Positions 2,869 through 41,601 are shown, counted from the first letter of the stretch. The stretch is 64,000 bases of DNA from Capsulimonadaceae bacterium (GCA_965215505.1 OZ244065.1:2560001-2624000), one strand, 5' to 3'. Made by a program: numbers and translations. The notes: generated by a model not told the origin, from the sequence alone.

Positions 2869-3933
2869 TTACAACAGGACTTCGTGGCCCGTCTCGGCGG
2901 ACTCGTAGAGCGCGTCCAGGAGGCGTGTCACCAGCAGGCCCTGCTCGCCGGAGACGGGCACGGGCGTGCCGTCGGCCAGGGCCTTGATGAAGGCGCGCAG
3001 CTCGGCCTCGTGCGTGTTCACGCGGGCCAGGAACGCGGGCGTCGTGTCGGTCAGGGTGCCGCTCTCCTCGCGGAAGAGGCGCGTCTTGGCGTCATCGGAG
3101 GGGTAGAGCAGCGCGCCGCCCTCCGTCCCCAGGAGTGTCGTGTGGAACTGGTTCTCGGCGATGTTCGCCGCAAACGAGGACTCCAAGGTCAGCGTCGCCC
3201 CACCCTTGAACCGGATGAAGCCGGCCGCGAAGTCCTCCACGGTGAACGTCTTCGGGTCCCACTCCCCCATCAGGCCCAGGACGCCCTCGCGCGTCCCGAA
3301 CTTGGCGTAGGTCTGGCCCGTCACCGAGACGGGTTCCGGGTGGCCCATCAGCCACAGCGTCAGGTCGAGGATGTGGACGCCGATGTCTATCAGCGGCCCC
3401 CCGCCCTGCTTGTCCTTCTGCGTGAACAGGCCCCAGCCGGGGATGCCGCGCCGCCGCAGGGCGTGGGCGCGGGCGTAATAGACCTCGCCCAGCCGGCCGC
3501 CGTCCACGAACCGCTTGACGGCCTGCGCCCCGGCCCCGAAGCGCACGTTCAGGCCGACCGCGAGCTGCCGGCCCGAGGCCCGCGCCGCCGCCGTCATCTC
3601 CGCCCCCTCGGCCGCATTAATCGCCAGCGGCTTCTCGCAGATGACGTGCTTGCCCGCCGCCAGCGAGTCCACGACGGGCTGCTTGTGGAGGTAGTTGGGC
3701 GTGCAGACGTCCACGGCCTCGATCCCGTCCATCTCCAGCATCTTGCGATAATCGGTGAACGTGTCGGGGACGCCGTACTTCTCGGAGGCCGCGCGCAGGG
3801 CATCTTCGTTGATGTCGCAGACGGCGACGATCCGTACCAGCCCTTCGTCCTGCATCTTCCGGTAGGCCGGCAGGTGCGCGCCCAGCCCGATATGTCCCGT
3901 GCCGATGATCGCGATCCCGATAGGTTTCGCCAT
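2869..3933 (-). CDS. Gfo/Idh/MocA family oxidoreductase
   Basis: GTGHIG Rossmann motif, CEKP, GGGPLIDIGVH. Start set at MAKPIG (AGGA upstream). Confidence 0.93.
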   Translation of the reverse strand: MAKPIGIAIIGTGHIGLGAHLPAYRKMQDEGLVRIVAVCDINEDALRAASEKYGVPDTFTDYRKMLEMDGIEAVDVCTPNYLHKQPVVDSLAAGKHVICEKPLAINAAEGAEMTAAARASGRQLAVGLNVRFGAGAQAVKRFVDGGRLGEVYYARAHALRRRGIPGWGLFTQKDKQGGGPLIDIGVHILDLTLWLMGHPEPVSVTGQTYAKFGTREGVLGLMGEWDPKTFTVEDFAAGFIRFKGGATLTLESSFAANIAENQFHTTLLGTEGGALLYPSDDAKTRLFREESGTLTDTTPAFLARVNTHEAELRAFIKALADGTPVPVSGEQGLLVTRLLDALYESAETGHEVLL

Positions 3934-7985: not shown

Positions 7986-8311
7986 AGCAGCCCCTCGCGC
8001 TCTATTTCCATGCGGACCTGTGGGTCCATGGCGGCAACGATGCGCTCGGCATCATCCGCCAGCTCATCGCGCGTCATATGGGATAAGTCGGCAAAGCCGT
8101 ACTTCAAGCGCATCCGTTCGTGTGACTCGGCCAGCGTGTGGCGCGGGCCGTCCAGCATCACCTGCATCTCGGCCCGGCCTCTTGCTTCCCGCTCCCAGCG
8201 GCGGACGGTTTCGGCAAGGGCATCGGCGACGAGCGCGTCAAGGTCGCCGTCCTTGTCGCGCAAGGCCCGCAGCCGGGTCGCCAGTGCATCATCGATGGTC
8301 ACGGTGGTCAT
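7982..8311 (-). CDS. Putative antitoxin
   Basis: RHH-like N-terminus MTTVTIDDALATRLR; ATGA overlap with the toxin; GGAGG RBS. Confidence 0.7.
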   Translation of the reverse strand: MTTVTIDDALATRLRALRDKDGDLDALVADALAETVRRWEREARGRAEMQVMLDGPRHTLAESHERMRLKYGFADLSHMTRDELADDAERIVAAMDPQVRMEIEREGLL

Positions 8312-35122: not shown

Positions 35123-36793
35123 ATGAGCGACGTCAAGAGCGAGATCAAGATCACCAAAGAAGAGCGGCTGAAGAAGGAAAAGGCGGGCCTGGACGTTCTG
35201 GCCGACATCTACCGGTACGCCGAGACCGGATTCGACGCCATCGAGCCGGGCGACTTCATGCGCTTCAAATGGTACGGCGTGTACCAGCAGCGGCCCAACG
35301 AGGGCCACTTCATGATGCGGATCAAGGTCCCCGGTGGGCGCATGACGAGCGAGCAGCTCCGCACCGTCGCCGACCTGACCGAGACCTACGCGCGCGGCAT
35401 CGGCGACATCACCACCCGCCAGACCATCCAGCTCCACTGGCTGACCATCCAGGACATGCCGGACATCTTCGCCCGGCTCAATGCAGTCGGCGTGACCACA
35501 GCCGGTGCCTGCGGCGACATCACCCGCAACCTGACTTCGTCCCCGGCGGCGGGCTTCGACCCGCAGGAGCTTGTTGACACCCGGCCCGCCGTGGACGCCA
35601 TCCAGGACTTCTTCCACCTGAACCGCGACTTCGGCGACCTGCCGCGCAAGTTCAAGATCGCCGTGGAAGGCTCCCCCGTCCAGAGTACGCTGCCGCAGAT
35701 CAACGACGCCTCGCTGATCGCCCACAGGCGCGAGTCCGACGGCGTGGTCGGCTACCACTTCTTCGTCGGCGGCGGGCTGTCCCTCCAGCCCTTCTTCGGG
35801 CAGATGATCGACGTCTTCGTTCCCGCCACCGAACTCGACAAGATCGTGGACGTCATGCGGGCCATCGCCGAGTGCTACCGGGACGCCGAGCAGCTCCGCG
35901 CCAAGCGCACCCGCGCCCGGCTGAAGTACCTGATGGCCGAGTGGGGGCCGGAGAAGTTCACCGCCGAGGTCCGCGCCAAGCTCGACTGGACGCCCGACTC
36001 GGCCGCGCCGGGCTTTGAATTCTCCGATGAGACCTACCGGGACCATATCGGCGTCCACGCCCAGTCCCAGCCGGGCCTGAATTGGATCGGCCTGTGCGTC
36101 CTGGCCGGCCGGCTCACCGACACGCAGATGCGCCTGGCCGCCGACGTCGCCGCCAAGTACGGCGGCGGCGAGGTCCGCACGACGAACGTCCAGAACCTGC
36201 TGATCCCGCACATCACGACCGAGGACCTGCCCGCCGCTCAGGCGGAGCTTGCGGCGGGCGGCTTCGCCTGGGACGTGCCCAACATCCGGCGCGGGGCCAT
36301 CGCCTGTACGGGCATCGAGTTCTGCAACCTGGCGATCACCGAAACCAAGCTGCGGATCAAGGAGGTCCTCGTCCACCTGGAAGAGGTCGCCCCGAACCCC
36401 TACGAGCGCGGCCTGAAGATCAACATGAACGGCTGCCCGAACTCCTGCGCCCAGCACCACGTCGGCGACATCGGCCTCCAGGGCTGCCTCGCCCGGCTCG
36501 ACGACGGCTCCCAGGTGGAGGCTTACGATGTCCACCTGGGCGGCGATCTGGGCGCGCACCCGTCCTTCACCCGCGCCATCCACCGCAAGGTGCCCGCCGA
36601 GAAGGTCAAGTACGCCCTGGGCAACGTCATCCGGCGCTTCCAAGAAACCCGCGAGGGCGAGGAGCGGTTCGCGCAGTGGGCGCACCGCCACACCAACGAG
36701 GAACTGGACGCTTACCTTGGCGTCGAAACCATCGTCGGTGCCCCCGACCTGCCGGCCTCGGCCCAGGGGGCAGGCGTGACGACTTGGCGGTAG
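35123..36793 (+). CDS. Ferredoxin-dependent nitrite/sulfite reductase (siroheme/4Fe-4S)
   Basis: FMMRIKVPGG, DITTRQTIQLH, LPRKFK, CTGIEFC and NGCPNSC ligand motifs. Nitrite versus sulfite specificity not resolved. Confidence 0.93.
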   Translation: MSDVKSEIKITKEERLKKEKAGLDVLADIYRYAETGFDAIEPGDFMRFKWYGVYQQRPNEGHFMMRIKVPGGRMTSEQLRTVADLTETYARGIGDITTRQTIQLHWLTIQDMPDIFARLNAVGVTTAGACGDITRNLTSSPAAGFDPQELVDTRPAVDAIQDFFHLNRDFGDLPRKFKIAVEGSPVQSTLPQINDASLIAHRRESDGVVGYHFFVGGGLSLQPFFGQMIDVFVPATELDKIVDVMRAIAECYRDAEQLRAKRTRARLKYLMAEWGPEKFTAEVRAKLDWTPDSAAPGFEFSDETYRDHIGVHAQSQPGLNWIGLCVLAGRLTDTQMRLAADVAAKYGGGEVRTTNVQNLLIPHITTEDLPAAQAELAAGGFAWDVPNIRRGAIACTGIEFCNLAITETKLRIKEVLVHLEEVAPNPYERGLKINMNGCPNSCAQHHVGDIGLQGCLARLDDGSQVEAYDVHLGGDLGAHPSFTRAIHRKVPAEKVKYALGNVIRRFQETREGEERFAQWAHRHTNEELDAYLGVETIVGAPDLPASAQGAGVTTWR

Positions 36794-36803
36794 GTTACAG
36801 AAG

Positions 36804-36843
36804 TAGGAGAGGCCGCCGGGGATACTCCCGGCGGCCTCTCCTA
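36804..36843. terminator. Strong hairpin after the reductase
   Basis: TAGGAGAGGCCGCCGGG / CCCGGCGGCCTCTCCTA 17-bp stem. Confidence 0.75.
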
Positions 36844-36864
36844 TGCTCAGAAGTAGAGGCTACC

Positions 36865-36893
36865 TTGCCTTTTCTGACCGGTCTTGTTATAAT
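36865..36893 (+). promoter_or_regulatory. Promoter of the island gene
   Basis: TTGCCT-N17-TATAAT with extended TG. Confidence 0.7.
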
Positions 36894-37068
36894 AGGCCTA
36901 GAGCTATCCTCAGCCCAAAATGTTCAGCATATCGTCTGACATATCGCAGGAAGTACAACAGAACTTTCCTAAGACTTGCGAACAGGTTCAAGCGGGCTGG
37001 TGCGGCTCTTTGGAGCACATTCCAAGCAAGACGTTTCGTAACGGTATATACCCCCGGTGTAACAAATC

Positions 37069-39507
37069 ATGGCTTGGAAATCTCCGTCACAGATCAAGAA
37101 ATTTTTGCAGGAATATGATAAGGCGGGGCGATTAGAACAATTATTCGCCTTGAGCGAGTTCGGGAAGTGGGCGATCTTCCCACTCGATTATGTCGCATCA
37201 CCTCGTTGGGTCGAGTTGGTTGAACTGACAGAAGCGGGGAAAAGCCTGCTCGCCCGAGATCCCGGAATATACGACGATGTCGCAATTGGCGACATATACT
37301 TCGCAATCTTTGGCCTCTTCTATGCCCAAGACATTCTGATTGATGTAGAGGGAAGCGACTTGGAAGGCATAAGGGCCGTTCTAGATGTAGAAGCCCTCAA
37401 AGGCCGGATCAGGTGGCCTTACAGATTTGGGCGTCTTCTCTATAATAAATACAATTCCCAGTTTCCGGAGGGGGAGATCGCTTTTCTTATTTCAGAGCAA
37501 ATTGCTGAGTTTCTGAATGATACTCCTCAAGGTGTCTATCAGATTGGAACGCTCCTATCAGGCCCACTCGGTTTTCTTACAAGCAGAGAGAACAGATTCA
37601 TTCCCCCATCGCTAGAAATGCCTTTATGGCACTGCTCTGACCCAGGATGCTCGCGGTTTCATACAGTGGGCTTTCTCCCACCAAACATAGCACCTGTTGT
37701 TGAAGCATATGCACGTCTGGATGAGGGCGCAAGAAAACTCGGCCCTCCCTCTCCATGGAGATCACAGTTGGCTCGTCTTGGTCGAAAGGATAAAGTAGTC
37801 GAGGCCGATGGTAGGCTTTATGCAGACCTCCCGGCTGTTCTTGGAGGAAACATCGTTGGAGTAGAACGGACGAAGCTATTGGCAAGGGTGCTAAAATCAG
37901 AGCATGCTTCTTGGCTTCGTCAAATCATTGGTGCGCCTCCGCGCCGAAAGCAACAGGCAGAGGGTATTGCCGAAGACGTTGCTTCTAAACTGAGTGAGGC
38001 AGAGCAAGTGCAATTGCTCCTCCTGTTGCCAGACAGTGATTTAGTTACTCAGATTGACCAAGCCATATTCAGCCGCGAAATACCCATCCCTCCTAACGAG
38101 GTAAGGAAATCGGATGCCACACAAGTTGTTTGGCGGAATGACCCTTCAAGTGAGGTTTCTTCATTAGGGATACGCGCAGCAAGGACGCGACCTTTGATCA
38201 CTTTGTTCTCCGTTGTTTGGGAGGCGTATCAGGCGCTCAACCTTGTCGATGAGTTGGATTGGAAGCTTCACAAAGGCCCAGAGAGGTCTTCTCGCGACGC
38301 TTTGGCTAGTTATGTCGAAGGCGCGGGTCCAGCGGCGGCTGTCCGCCAACTCATCATGTCTAGTAAGCCAATCAGCCTAAGGATCAGTGATGAGCTGGGG
38401 TTGGCATTAAATGAGCAGGACGATCCTGATGTATTAGCTGATAGGTTCCTATGGAAATTAGGGTTTAGTCCCTTCCGTTACGACACGGAGTACAGTGTTC
38501 TGCGCGCACGCATGAATCAGTTCCGGGAGACTTTGCTCCAGATAGGAGAAATCAAAAGTGAAGCGAGTCGTGAAGCGATTCGCAGCACCGGGGTAAACCT
38601 TTTTGTATCTGTTGAACATTTTCTAGAACATTTGATTGCCTTCAATATTTGGCTCCTTGTCTCGGACCATTTTCTCAAAACTCGCTTTGTTTACGAAGCA
38701 GAAGCGGCTGTCGCTTCAGTCAGCTCCGCTCTGGAACCAATCAACACCACAGAAGGGCAATCTATCCAGTGGAACAAGAACGGTGGTAACACACTTGGTG
38801 TACTCCTTGCCTATCTGAGCCAGGCTGTGAAGTGGATTGAGGCACTGCCCGAGCGGGAACGGCACCCTTTGGCAAGGGAAGAGCATGATATTCCTAGTTA
38901 CGCCAACAGTAGCGAGCGTGTCTTTCCACTGAAACACTATGAGATGTGGGCGGATAGCGACTCAAGAGAGTTATCGCTTTTTGCACACGGCTTCAAGACA
39001 GTAGCGAATCAGCTTTCCAGAGCCAATCTTGCATCCATAAGGAACGGCCTTGACCACCATCGTTCAGAGGATGCCTTTCCAACAGCGGAAGGCATGATTG
39101 CTTGTGTGACTTGGCTGAAAGACGGTTTGGACTATGCTGACCTACATCGCTACATCCCAAAAACGTTTTGGCTTCAGTCGCGCAGTGAGGATCAATTTGG
39201 AGGACGGCAATACATGTTGCAAGATTATTTAGACCGCCCACTAGCATTACGAGGACCATCGATATTGACTGGAGTGCCGCTCGCGACATTCAACAAGCCT
39301 CTAATAATCGCGCCTGGAAATCTTCTCGGCTTACCAAATGCAGAACTGAAGTTTCGTGTAGAAGATCGTAGCGCGTTCTCTAAATATTGGGAGGGTTTCC
39401 CACTTAGGCGTCAAGTAGAAAAGAAAGGTTCTGATCCAGACGAAAACCTGGATAACACGCCTCTAGTGAACGATGCGGAGGCAGGGGATTTGGTTCAACC
39501 TGTTTAG
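37069..39507 (+). CDS. 812-aa hypothetical protein with putative Zn site and C-terminal HEPN-like motifs
   Basis: Long low-GC ORF; HCSDPGCSRFH; NLFVSVEHFL...TLGVL...IRNGLDH (RxxxxH). Function inferred only. Confidence 0.8.
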   Translation: MAWKSPSQIKKFLQEYDKAGRLEQLFALSEFGKWAIFPLDYVASPRWVELVELTEAGKSLLARDPGIYDDVAIGDIYFAIFGLFYAQDILIDVEGSDLEGIRAVLDVEALKGRIRWPYRFGRLLYNKYNSQFPEGEIAFLISEQIAEFLNDTPQGVYQIGTLLSGPLGFLTSRENRFIPPSLEMPLWHCSDPGCSRFHTVGFLPPNIAPVVEAYARLDEGARKLGPPSPWRSQLARLGRKDKVVEADGRLYADLPAVLGGNIVGVERTKLLARVLKSEHASWLRQIIGAPPRRKQQAEGIAEDVASKLSEAEQVQLLLLLPDSDLVTQIDQAIFSREIPIPPNEVRKSDATQVVWRNDPSSEVSSLGIRAARTRPLITLFSVVWEAYQALNLVDELDWKLHKGPERSSRDALASYVEGAGPAAAVRQLIMSSKPISLRISDELGLALNEQDDPDVLADRFLWKLGFSPFRYDTEYSVLRARMNQFRETLLQIGEIKSEASREAIRSTGVNLFVSVEHFLEHLIAFNIWLLVSDHFLKTRFVYEAEAAVASVSSALEPINTTEGQSIQWNKNGGNTLGVLLAYLSQAVKWIEALPERERHPLAREEHDIPSYANSSERVFPLKHYEMWADSDSRELSLFAHGFKTVANQLSRANLASIRNGLDHHRSEDAFPTAEGMIACVTWLKDGLDYADLHRYIPKTFWLQSRSEDQFGGRQYMLQDYLDRPLALRGPSILTGVPLATFNKPLIIAPGNLLGLPNAELKFRVEDRSAFSKYWEGFPLRRQVEKKGSDPDENLDNTPLVNDAEAGDLVQPV

Positions 39508-39683
39508 CAGGGCGGTTCTTCGCAACATACCCGCAATGAAAGATCGTATGATGGTTTACTCACTGTTATCAATTTGTGCAAGCAGTTATAACTACGGATA
39601 AATCAGTGAGAGTGCCATACGCTCGCACCTGCCGACCTCGGCCCAGGGCGCGGGCGTGACGACGTGGCGGTGAGTTGATCCAC

Positions 39684-39714
39684 AAAGGGCGGGCCTTACG
39701 GCTCGCCCTTTTTT
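39684..39714 (+). terminator. Rho-independent terminator after the second copy of the reductase 3' end
   Basis: AAAGGGCGGGCC-TTAC-GGCTCGCCCTTT followed by a T run. Confidence 0.8.
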
Positions 39715-39743
39715 GTTGCCAGCCTTCGGGTAGAATACGCGCT

Positions 39744-40826
39744 ATGAAACTCGATAAGCTGACCATTCGCGGCTACAAGTCCATCAAAGAGTTGAAAGAC
39801 TTTGAGCTCCGCAACCTGAACGTACTCATCGGTGCAAATGGCGCGGGCAAGAGCAACCTCCTGAGCCTCTTCCGCTTGTTAAATGCGATAGCGGAAGGCA
39901 ATTTGCAGGTGTATATCCAAAAGCAAGGCGGGCCGGATGCGCTGCTGTTCGGCGGGCGCAAGCGCACAGCACAACTGGATGCTCTGTTCTACTTTGGTGA
40001 CAATGGGTATTGGATTAGGCTGGCTGCCACTGCCGATAACCGCCTTATCTTTGAGCGCGAAGAAACACTATTCAAAGGGAAGATGAACCAAGTGAGTTAT
40101 CCACCCCTGGCTGGCTATCCAGAGGCATGGCTGCTGAACAATCTCACACCCGAAAGCCAGTCTGTCCGTCCCCCTTTGCAGCGCTGGCGGCTGTATCACT
40201 TCCAAGATGCAAGCGACGCAGCGGCAGTCAAGCAGCCCCACCCGAGTAATGACAACCTGCGATTGAAACCCGACGCAGCTAACCTTGCGGCGTTCCTGGC
40301 AAGCCTCCGCGCGGGCTTCCCAAGCGAATACAGGCGAATCGTAGAAACCATCCGGCTGGCTGCGCCGTTCTTCGGCGATTTCGTGATCCGCGACCCGCTG
40401 CCGCCGACTGTGGAACTGGAATGGACCGAGCGTGGAGACCCGGACACCCCCTACCGCGCCCATGTGCTGTCCGACGGCACCCTGCGCTTTATCTGCCTGA
40501 CGACCCTGCTGCTCCAGCCCCTCGCCCTGCGCCCCGACACGATCCTCATAGATGAGCCGGAGCTGGGACTGCACCCTTACGCCATCAACCTGCTGGCCGA
40601 GATGCTGAAACAAGCCTCCGCCGACAAACAGGTCATCGTCTCCACGCAGTCCGTCGAACTGCTCAACAACTTCACGCCCGAAGACGTGATCGTGGCGGAC
40701 CGTGAGGACGGCGCTTCTGTCTTCAAGCGGTTGGATGCGGATGAGTTAAAAGACTGGCTGGAAGACTACACCCTGGGCGAGTTGTGGAAGAAGAACATTC
40801 TGGGCGGGAGGCCGACGCGCACATGA
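39744..40826 (+). CDS. AAA_21/ABC-type ATPase
   Basis: Walker A GANGAGKS, signature LSDGT, Walker B ILIDEPELGLHP, STQS. ATG at 39744 is 7 nt after TAGAAT. Confidence 0.9.
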   Translation: MKLDKLTIRGYKSIKELKDFELRNLNVLIGANGAGKSNLLSLFRLLNAIAEGNLQVYIQKQGGPDALLFGGRKRTAQLDALFYFGDNGYWIRLAATADNRLIFEREETLFKGKMNQVSYPPLAGYPEAWLLNNLTPESQSVRPPLQRWRLYHFQDASDAAAVKQPHPSNDNLRLKPDAANLAAFLASLRAGFPSEYRRIVETIRLAAPFFGDFVIRDPLPPTVELEWTERGDPDTPYRAHVLSDGTLRFICLTTLLLQPLALRPDTILIDEPELGLHPYAINLLAEMLKQASADKQVIVSTQSVELLNNFTPEDVIVADREDGASVFKRLDADELKDWLEDYTLGELWKKNILGGRPTRT

Positions 40827-41527
40827 ACGCCCCCATGCGCCTGGTGTTCGTGGTGTGCGAGGGGCAGACCGAAGAAACATTCGTGCGCGACGTGCTGGCA
40901 CCCGCGTTTTATCCTCAGCTTAACCTTATCGGGCAGATCATCGAGACTTCGCCGGGTCATAAGGGCGGCGGCCTCTCGTATCAGCGGGTGCTGAGGCATC
41001 TGCGGGACACGCTCCGCCAGTCGAGCGCGCCGTTCGTGACCACGCTGTTTGATCTATACCAATTGGACACCGACTTTCCTGGTCACCGCGAGGCGACGGG
41101 AAAACCTCTAGAGCAACGGCTCAACCTTCTGAACGCCAGCCTCCATAGAGCTGTCGTTGCTGCCACAGGCTGTCAGCCCGACCGCTTCCTGCCCTACATC
41201 CAGCCTTACGAGTTTGAAGCCTTGCTGTTCAGTGATGTGGCGGCTTTGACCGGCCTGAACGACACTTGGGCGGGCGCAGAGGCGAAGCTGCAAGCCATCC
41301 GAGACAGTGCCGAGACGCCGGAGCATATTGATGACGGACCGACCACGAAACCTGCGGCCCATCTAGAGCGGCATCTGACACAACCGAACTACAGCAAGAG
41401 GCTGGATGGGCCGAGGGCTATATCAAGGATCGGCCTCGCCAAGATCGAGCAGGAGTGCCGCTACTTTGCCGCGTGGCTCGCCTCGTTGCGTGAACTCGCC
41501 GCTCTGGAAGCGGCTGGGATGGACTGA
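40823..41527 (+). CDS. DUF4276-family TOPRIM-like protein
   Basis: VVCEGQTEETFV, TTLFDLY, YEFEALLFSD, PEHIDDGP..KP; ATGA overlap with the ATPase. Confidence 0.82.
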   Translation: MNAPMRLVFVVCEGQTEETFVRDVLAPAFYPQLNLIGQIIETSPGHKGGGLSYQRVLRHLRDTLRQSSAPFVTTLFDLYQLDTDFPGHREATGKPLEQRLNLLNASLHRAVVAATGCQPDRFLPYIQPYEFEALLFSDVAALTGLNDTWAGAEAKLQAIRDSAETPEHIDDGPTTKPAAHLERHLTQPNYSKRLDGPRAISRIGLAKIEQECRYFAAWLASLRELAALEAAGMD

Positions 41528-41560
41528 GACGCTTTACGCAACAGGCACACCAACCCAGGG

Positions 41561-41588
41561 AGGCCGCCGGGGGTGTCCCCGGCGGCCT
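41561..41588. terminator. Hairpin between convergent genes, near-copy of the 36809 hairpin
   Basis: AGGCCGCCGGGG-GTGT-CCCCGGCGGCCT. Confidence 0.7.
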
Positions 41589-41601
41589 TTGTCATGCGAC
41601 C

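Follow-up and report, generated by a model that had tools for sequence, protein, structure and literature searches.

A reductase gene end recurs behind a single low-GC gene

We analysed a 64,000-nt stretch of DNA (the window) from the genome of a Capsulimonadaceae bacterium (GCA_965215505.1, OZ244065.1:2560001-2624000), in which a low-GC cassette with one gene is inserted at the 3' end of a sulfite/nitrite reductase gene. Positions are those of the window unless they are preceded by G000:C1. G000 denotes the genome under study, a single contig of 6,177,771 bases, and other G numbers denote the further genomes compared with it. The reductase gene (35123-36793, plus strand) codes for a 556-residue protein (Pfam NIR_SIR, 3.9e-48; NIR_SIR_ferr, 9.9e-42) and was found in all 41 genomes searched, namely G000 and 40 relatives. 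Its reading frame is whole at 556 residues despite the insertion.

The last 15 codons of the gene including the stop, together with the following GTT, form the left repeat (36747-36796, plus strand; tail copy 1), which is the copy in use. The right repeat (39627-39676, plus strand; tail copy 2) is an orphan, with no continuous reductase reading frame upstream of it. An earlier note on this DNA, made from the sequence alone, had reported that the 47-nt reductase end recurs 2880 bp downstream with 41 identical positions, and this is what we found: the coding bases 36747-36793 and 39627-39673 are 41/47 identical at a spacing of 2880, or 44/50 identical if the three bases past the stop are included (36747-36796 and 39627-39676). 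The local-alignment score of the repeat is 35 (z = 22.7 relative to shuffled flanks). A search of both strands of all 6,177,771 bases, allowing up to eight mismatches, returned these two copies only. It is therefore not a dispersed repeat, the possibility that the earlier note had held against its own interpretation.

The two copies differ in five codons (GCC/ACC, an Ala/Thr change; GGG/GGC; GCA/GCG; ACT/ACG; and TAG/TGA, copy 1 being given first). Four of these differences are synonymous and one is nonsynonymous, in agreement with the list given before. At repeat positions 23 and 38, copy 1 shows the rarer state, and it shares its TAG stop with G011. The further claim, that the copy in use betrays a foreign origin by its A/T-ending codons, stood only for ACT, which is unusual (2 of 23 relatives); GCA is the commonest state (17 of 23), and GGG ends in G.

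Each copy is followed by a hairpin. The first, T1 (36804-36843, not assigned to a strand), has perfectly complementary arms of 17 bp around a 6-nt loop. It lacks a T run and is absent from the terminator-scan list. The second, T2 (39684-39711, plus strand), has 12 pairs plus a T run and scores as an intrinsic terminator.

Between T1 and tail copy 2 lies the cassette proper, which spans ~2.78 kb (36847-39626, plus strand; the left edge is approximate). The G+C content between the copies is 0.46-0.52, versus 0.67-0.72 upstream and 0.665 for the genome. The sole cargo gene, ORF812 (37069-39507, plus strand), codes for an 812-residue protein whose family has no name and whose C-terminal domain is HEPN-like, and it is present in a single copy in G000. 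It is preceded by a promoter-like site (36865-36893, plus strand; TTGCCT, 17 nt, TG-TATAAT), a consensus match only (10/12) from a scan that yielded four sites where 2.6 are expected by chance. A 119-nt spacer separates ORF812 from the orphan tail. As the earlier note had stated, no recombinase is encoded in the cassette. The genome has five Phage_integrase and five Resolvase matches, the nearest of which are about 360-400 kb away. No tRNA gene was found in the 64-kb window, and the only two Rfam matches in positions 36600-39900 are both far below the gathering scores.

The 9-mer CAGAAGTAG was seen by eye on both sides of T1, at 36799-36807 and 36848-36856. It could mark the left joint of the cassette.

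T2 is followed by two resident genes outside the cassette, HEC-01A (39744-40826, plus strand; an AAA_21 ATPase; PADLOC 1.6e-139, Pfam AAA_21 8.2e-30) and HEC-01B (40784-41527, plus strand; DUF4276; PADLOC 5e-67, Pfam DUF4276 1.2e-41). They form a complete pair of HEC-01, a candidate defence system of PADLOC, both components being adjacent with overlapping reading frames. Behind them lies T1' (41560-41597, not assigned to a strand), a second copy of T1 with 29-nt arms that are 93% complementary. It is 79% identical to T1 over 38 nt, and a genome search showed the T1/T1' pair to be specific to this locus.

Relatives carry empty sites and both types of gene end

We compared the 1.3-12.3 kb of DNA downstream of the reductase gene in 24 relatives, each species being represented by one genome; 23 belong to the genus of G000 and the remaining one to its family. 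None of these 24 relatives has a second tail at the protein level or a match to the cassette in that DNA. The site behind the reductase is variable among them, HEC-01 being found in G000 and G013 and ORF812 in addition in G000.

Empty sites, which the earlier note had predicted, exist. In G022 and G013, whose reductases have 93% and 89% amino acid identity to that of G000, a single tail is followed by a T2-like terminator and a 'gggtagaat' promoter as in G000. The promoter is followed by HEC-01A/B in G013 (77% and 62% identity), and in G022 HEC-01A is cut to its first 18 codons and then a stop. A metagenome contig from another study (run X1) joins position 36789 to 39685 with 14 other letters between them. 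All three thus run from a single tail into the terminator at 39684. The same run also holds pieces of ORF812 that are 97-99% identical, as does a lichen metagenome from a further study (X2), in which one contig spans the right joint (39495-39693) and shows a 6-nt deletion at 39646, inside the orphan tail. Stretches of the window without cover in X1 or X2 are uninformative. The backward joint of an excised circle was not among the contigs of four runs, although contigs drop rare forms.

The relatives also indicate where each copy comes from. Tail copy 2 is closest to G022 (42/47, versus 38/47 for copy 1) and is attached to downstream DNA of the G022/G013 type, which bears out the proposal that the downstream copy is the displaced original end. 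Tail copy 1 is followed by T1, and T1 aligns with the hairpins behind the reductase genes of G011, G020 and G019; a similar stem is visible in G005. In G011 (reductase 93% identical), this hairpin follows a single tail, and the homology of the window to G011 stops near 36846. Judged by these alignments, tail copy 2 and T2 are the resident allele, and tail copy 1 and T1, a reductase terminator of a type native to the genus, are another allele that came in together. Since the hairpin behind tail copy 1 ends the reductase gene in other relatives, the cassette came with the gene end of a relative, as had been suggested for the low-GC cargo.

The resident gene order gives a second argument for this origin. 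In the resident allele, HEC-01 sits between the tail and T1'. The adjacent tail copy 1 and T1 are therefore not a local copy, because HEC-01 separates the tail from T1' there.

No integrase-bearing element was found at the reductase tail in any of the 24 relatives. In G015 a serine recombinase is encoded ~6-7 kb downstream of the reductase, without a second tail.

The cargo protein is a candidate HEPN ribonuclease

Pfam, PADLOC, NCBIfam and PHROGs assigned ORF812 to no family, and a profile matched none of the PDB sequences. It has at least 100 homologues of ~800 residues, nearly all of them unnamed, and the best among those listed has 46% identity. Their genome records are from Acidobacteriota, Planctomycetota, Chloroflexota, Rubrobacteraceae, Verrucomicrobiota, Luteimonas, Hymenobacter, Massilia and others. 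An AlphaFold model of ORF812 has a predicted local distance difference test score (pLDDT) of 88.8. Foldseek searches of PDB with the whole model or with residues 1-465 returned nothing at E <= 0.001.

For residues ~470-700, the best row in VIA is the HEPN toxin 8xdj (Z 7.5, root-mean-square deviation 3.0, 122/130 aligned). The further HEPN entries 1wwp, 7ae2, 1jog, 5yep and 2hsb have Z scores of 6.2-7.3, with unrelated helical proteins interleaved at the same Z. HEPN proteins follow an Rx4-6H motif rule. The ORF812 family has a motif that conforms to it, R658-N-G-x-D-H663, in which R658, N659, G660, D662 and H663 are invariant in 26 sequences. Pfam found no family in these 26 aligned members, and none of them matched a HEPN Pfam model at E <= 1. 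An Atlas search gave weak leads only, to RnlA and HEPN_RnaseLS (0.79-0.84). Taken together, we consider with moderate confidence that the C-terminal half is a probable HEPN ribonuclease (RNase) domain.

The N-terminal half, residues 1-465, is also modelled confidently when taken alone (pLDDT 90.9) and matches no known fold. Its best VIA hit (Z 5.3) is a death-fold-like helical bundle over residues 374-465, which we took as uninformative. An invariant W-H-C-x-D-x-G-C...H motif suggests metal binding. ORF812 is probably a HEPN-type RNase that would act in defence or as a toxin; a role in defence is what we infer from the HEPN-like domain, the patchy spread of the family and the defence-type genes beside some homologues.

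Similar brackets surround some homologues of ORF812

We gathered 23 loci of ORF812 homologues from genomes, 62 from metagenomes and two from viral contigs. Thirty-six of them, with a whole gene and usable flanks, could be tested for a flanking direct repeat at a score of at least 20; L060, L065, L096, L098 and L099 were excluded for short or broken frames, six loci for too-short flanks and two for incomplete genes. Such a repeat is present at 6 of the 36 loci. One of the six, the 73-nt bracket of L080, was dropped as a dispersed repeat because the same sequence occurs elsewhere in the locus, which leaves 5/36. We also left out L052, in which a protease gene is partially duplicated, and L069 and L100, which have 23-nt repeats, as unclear.

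In each of the five remaining brackets the ORF812 homologue is the only content. At L054 the final 176 nt of rpoC are repeated (96% identical, spacing 2998), and similar terminators follow the two copies. At L127 the repeat is an rpoC-like end with its terminator, of at least 195 nt since it is cut off by the start of the contig (spacing 3144). L072 is bracketed by the 3' 44 nt of tRNA-Glu(CTC) from the anticodon loop onwards (100% identical, spacing 3561), L067 by a 51-nt repeat (spacing 2749) and L059 by a 41-nt terminator repeat (spacing 2826). When control windows shifted by 4-5 kb were scored in the same way, 4 of 52 reached the threshold. Two of these hits come from paralogous or weakly similar coding sequences, a third is the dispersed repeat noted above, and the fourth, in L085, is a genuine repeat of 59 nt. 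This L085 repeat (3690-3748 and 8145-8203) sets in 150 nt past the ORF812 homologue and flanks the following 4.4 kb. It may delimit a second cassette in tandem.

Genes beside the homologues, two per side and 114 open reading frames (ORFs) in all, are mostly housekeeping genes. Some code for defence-type proteins (AAA_15/21 ATPases, OLD-like TOPRIM, MmeI, HEPN-MNT and HEPN_Toprim_N). Among these ORFs, resolvases occur in L063 only, and no tyrosine integrase was found. No non-coding sequence is common to the homologue loci except for near-identical pairs. At L060 (7473-7547), the closest homologue from a genome (50% identity), in a metagenome-assembled genome of Rubrobacteraceae, starts ~200 nt after a tRNA-His gene. 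No partial copy of that tRNA gene was found downstream, and the homologue is seemingly frameshifted in the record.

The relatives of the genome that carries L054 show three states of the rpoC end, namely a 3.0-kb ORF812 insert, a 7.4-kb insert in G050 and a 41-nt orphan tail in G047. The length of the bracket varies accordingly, from 41 nt in G047 and 176 nt in G041 to more than 535 nt in G050. The G050 insert (L163, 622-8590) lies between 442 + 93 nt of rpoC at 96-98% identity and has a host-like G+C content. Its cargo is an FHA/Trans_reg_C regulator and a PD40 Ser/Thr kinase, and there is no integrase among its called ORFs of at least 90 residues. The G047 tail is found 46 nt past the stop. 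In G011, we noticed an 18-nt partial copy of the reductase tail 3 nt past the stop of the reductase gene. The small tail scars in G011 and G047 look like remnants of bracketed inserts.

A genome-wide scan of G000 for isolated repeats around low-GC DNA yielded further examples: a 32-nt terminator repeat around 2.45 kb (G000:C1:3269866-3272349), a 74-nt repeat of the 5' end of a gene around 1.4 kb (G000:C1:4241323-4242798), a 43-nt repeat of a signal-peptide start around 1.2 kb (G000:C1:103232-104452) and a 36-nt repeat around 3.4 kb (at G000:C1:2628186). The first three segments contain one or two low-GC ORFs each. Thus, the bracket anatomy is not peculiar to ORF812.

A proposed import of a gene end with a passenger gene

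We propose, with moderate confidence, that the cassette was imported by recombination primed by homology with the allele of a related strain, without a dedicated recombinase of its own. The earlier note had left two mechanisms open, and we favour this homology-primed capture over an element moved in trans. The resident chromosome would have had the order reductase, tail, T2, HEC-01 and T1', as in G013 and, partly deleted, in G022. The donor strain would have carried a G011-type allele, with reductase, tail and T1, and the foreign ORF812 gene just behind T1. Donor DNA would then have recombined with the resident chromosome through the common reductase end. This could have occurred by a single reciprocal crossover of a circle that comprised the tail, T1 and ORF812. 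Alternatively, it could have occurred by homology-facilitated illegitimate recombination, a process documented in naturally competent bacteria (PMC6382021), with the last ~500 nt of the reductase gene as the anchor and an illegitimate right joint at 39626/39627. By either route, the product would be the reductase body with imported tail copy 1 and T1, then ORF812, then the displaced tail copy 2 with T2 and HEC-01. In both cases the imported end is a working one, which keeps the reductase intact.

The codon differences between bracket copies are consistent with such an import. In addition to those in the window, the five differing codons of the rpoC-end copies of L054 are all synonymous, with one frameshift in the orphan, and so are the four of the G047 orphan tail, as compared by eye. 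Pooled over the three loci, 13 of 14 differences are synonymous. Under unselected change, roughly one in four would be expected to be so by our estimate. This argues that each copy evolved as a functional gene end in a lineage of its own before the two were brought together.

The distribution of states along the repeat fits a crossover. Tail copy 1 has the common state at position 9, and tail copy 2 has the G022 state at positions 23, 26 and 38 and at the stop. The switch between positions 9 and 23 lies in a 13-nt identical block (positions 10-22), where the reciprocal crossover would have taken place, although there are only five informative sites. The reductase gene itself appears to be a mosaic: upstream of ~36225-36250, G000 sides with G022 (64:49 versus G011 and 117:47 versus G012), and downstream it sides with G011 and G012 (23:38 and 24:30).

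Several points weigh against this proposal. The evidence for a mosaic is weak: p is 0.026 and 0.0005 at the best breakpoints, without correction for the ~56 breakpoints tried, and the last 150 nt of the reductase are back to parity. The homology between the tails extends over 47 nt at 87% identity, with a longest identical run of 13 nt; the reciprocal crossover would be inefficient unless catalysed, because short, diverged homology is a poor substrate for RecA. Both tails share three states that are rare among the relatives (positions 8, 31 and 44), which needs a very close donor or later gene conversion. ORF812 is absent from the whole genomes of all 40 relatives, one genome per species, and no donor was found among them. 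The enrichment of brackets at ORF812 homologues (5/36 versus 4/52) is modest. Finally, the tRNA-Glu gene that brackets L072 is occupied by tyrosine-integrase islands in relatives of that genome, G073 (32-nt repeat) and G070 (62-nt repeat). Together with the start of the L072 repeat exactly at the anticodon loop, this points to site-specific integration, at least at that locus.

Because relatives carry such islands there, a trans-acting recombinase is a real possibility at tRNA-Glu. At the reductase, the corresponding explanation is a minimal integrative element resembling a cis-mobilizable element (CIME), in which the two tails are attachment sites and a tyrosine or serine recombinase acts in trans. 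The attL-cargo-attR anatomy with a replacement gene end is what one would predict in this case, the distribution of states fits a single crossover in the longest identical block, a recombinase in trans would yield the same product as the reciprocal crossover of a circle, and the ten integrase and resolvase matches elsewhere in G000 are potential sources of the enzyme. We regard this explanation as possible but rather doubtful. None of the 24 relatives has an integrase-bearing element at the reductase tail, and the cassettes show no conserved arm-like sequence. Along with the gene end itself came the host-type hairpin T1 and, at L054, a long non-coding stretch of the host. Moreover, the rpoC-end brackets have no fixed length, and the 7.4-kb insert of G050 is also devoid of an integrase.

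Duplication in place is improbable. According to this explanation, a staggered break at the gene end would have been repaired by fill-in with capture of foreign DNA through end joining, and divergence of the two copies would have followed. The scars of the same geometry in G011 (18 nt) and G047 (41 nt), the three rare states shared by the tails and the other bracketed low-GC segments of G000 would all be in line with it. However, the excess of synonymous differences does not fit, nor does their distribution. If the states of G022 and G011 are taken as the older ones, the working copy accounts for four of the five codon changes at this locus and the orphan for one. Duplication in place predicts the opposite, since a drifting orphan should change faster. 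Furthermore, a tail joined to T1 could not be copied from a resident allele that has HEC-01 between them, the tails differ by 13% yet ORF812 is 97-99% identical in two other metagenomes, and close relatives have clean empty sites.

Equally improbable, if not slightly more so, is that ORF812 is itself the mobility enzyme, i.e. that the cassette is an autonomous one-gene element in which the N-terminal half is a new kind of recombinase and the HEPN-like half an addiction or defence module. Such an element would place its gene directly past the terminators of housekeeping genes (rpoC, tRNA-Glu, sulfite reductase) and bring along a spare gene end. ORF812 homologues do lie alone in the brackets of five of the 36 loci, as in the window, at spacings of 2749-3561 nt and in several phyla and targets, and residues 1-465 adopt a confidently predicted fold that matches none known, and there is an invariant, putatively metal-binding motif. 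Yet ORF812 bears no likeness to a recombinase, transposase or nuclease fold, 31 of the 36 loci have no clear bracket, and there are no conserved end sequences. In addition, the imported ends are host alleles, other cargo occurs in brackets of the same type, and the C-terminal domain resembles HEPN RNases.

That two alleles from a mixed sample were joined in assembly is hardly credible: the runs that hold the locus contain minor variants of the reductase end (e.g. one contig, at a depth of 3.8, in which unlike DNA follows a T1-like hairpin), but the genome is one 6.18-Mb contig, the X2 contig spans the right joint, and misassembly, to which the earlier note had drawn attention, is unlikely because short-read contigs of two runs, which may be the source sample of the genome itself, span both copies without a single difference (36725-40607, 3883 nt, and 36739-39751, 3013 nt).

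Relation to known systems

Integrative islands that target the 3' ends of genes and carry a replacement end are well known, such as the islands at tRNA genes and the ICESt3-type elements at fda. The locus resembles them in its direct repeats of the target 3' end, in the intact gene, in the orphan original end and in the existence of empty sites. It differs from them in that the cassette has no integrase, the terminator was imported too, the cargo is a single gene, and the target is a sulfite/nitrite reductase gene. Islands with replacement ends are normally explained by their own integrase, and here the same anatomy is found with no Phage_integrase or Resolvase match within ~360 kb. Relatives of ORF812 are surrounded by such brackets too; two unrelated bacteria have them at the rpoC end, and others at a tRNA or at terminators.

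CIMEs, in the definition given in the cited text, have kept their attachment sites and lost the genes for integration and transfer (PMC5704250). The cassette is like them in having flanking attachment-like repeats and no integration or transfer genes. It is unlike them, as far as that definition goes, in that no integrase-bearing parent occupies the site in the 24 relatives and that there is no sign of decay from a larger element. With homology-facilitated illegitimate recombination, as it is described in the text cited above, the locus would share the entry of foreign DNA beside a one-sided anchor from a relative, without need of a dedicated recombinase. The differences from that description are that the right joint would lie upstream of the end of the anchor and that 47 nt would be duplicated rather than recipient DNA deleted. 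As in defence-gene hotspots between core genes, the site behind the reductase is variable, and in G000 and G013 it holds HEC-01. ORF812 itself matches no PADLOC model. We found no description of the ORF812 family, of the bracket arrangement or of rpoC-end brackets in the portions of the literature consulted, which is not proof that they are unpublished.

If homology-primed import of a gene end plus a passenger were a regular process, it would explain the solitary defence-type genes found beside essential genes in soil bacteria without the signature of a mobile element. Orphan gene ends could then be a dated record of such imports. The widespread and unannotated family of ~800 residues to which ORF812 belongs would be a candidate family of HEPN effectors.

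Other observations at the site and in the genome

A gene for a 263-residue membrane protein directly follows the reductase gene in G011 and G022. In G000 it is found at G000:C1:2697171, ~95.5 kb past T1', and homology to the intergenic DNA of G011 resumes ~110 nt before it. Therefore, ~95 kb of DNA was inserted or moved in at the same site. The ~95-kb stretch behind T1' (G000:C1:2601600-2697060) has no Phage_integrase or Resolvase match.

The DNA behind the reductase gene of G015 (L050, 1044-7322) encodes a DDE_Tnp_4 transposase, an ATP-grasp R2K protein and the large serine recombinase mentioned above. The reductase gene of this genome is read in pieces in the assembly, and no second tail was found within 12.3 kb. 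An 11-nt match, noticed by eye, between the right end of the cassette and the DNA behind the G015 reductase was dropped, as we estimated it to be at chance level.

Two contigs of G002 (L012 and L041, on C16 and C132) share exactly 141 identical bases at their overlap and part at the stop codon of the reductase gene. This branching suggests that the G002 sample probably holds at least two different sequences behind the reductase.

Finally, two groups of repeats were noticed elsewhere in G000. The first (G000:C1:4697783-4702504) is a long array of a ~31-35-nt repeat that recurs every ~67 nt and looks like CRISPR. The second (G000:C1:4775230-4779600) consists of 35-115-nt repeats with paired GCCTAAC/GTTAGGC motifs, which are 1.3-4.3 kb apart in lower-GC DNA and resemble integron attC sites. 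With no Phage_integrase match nearby, this region may be a cassette array without an integrase.

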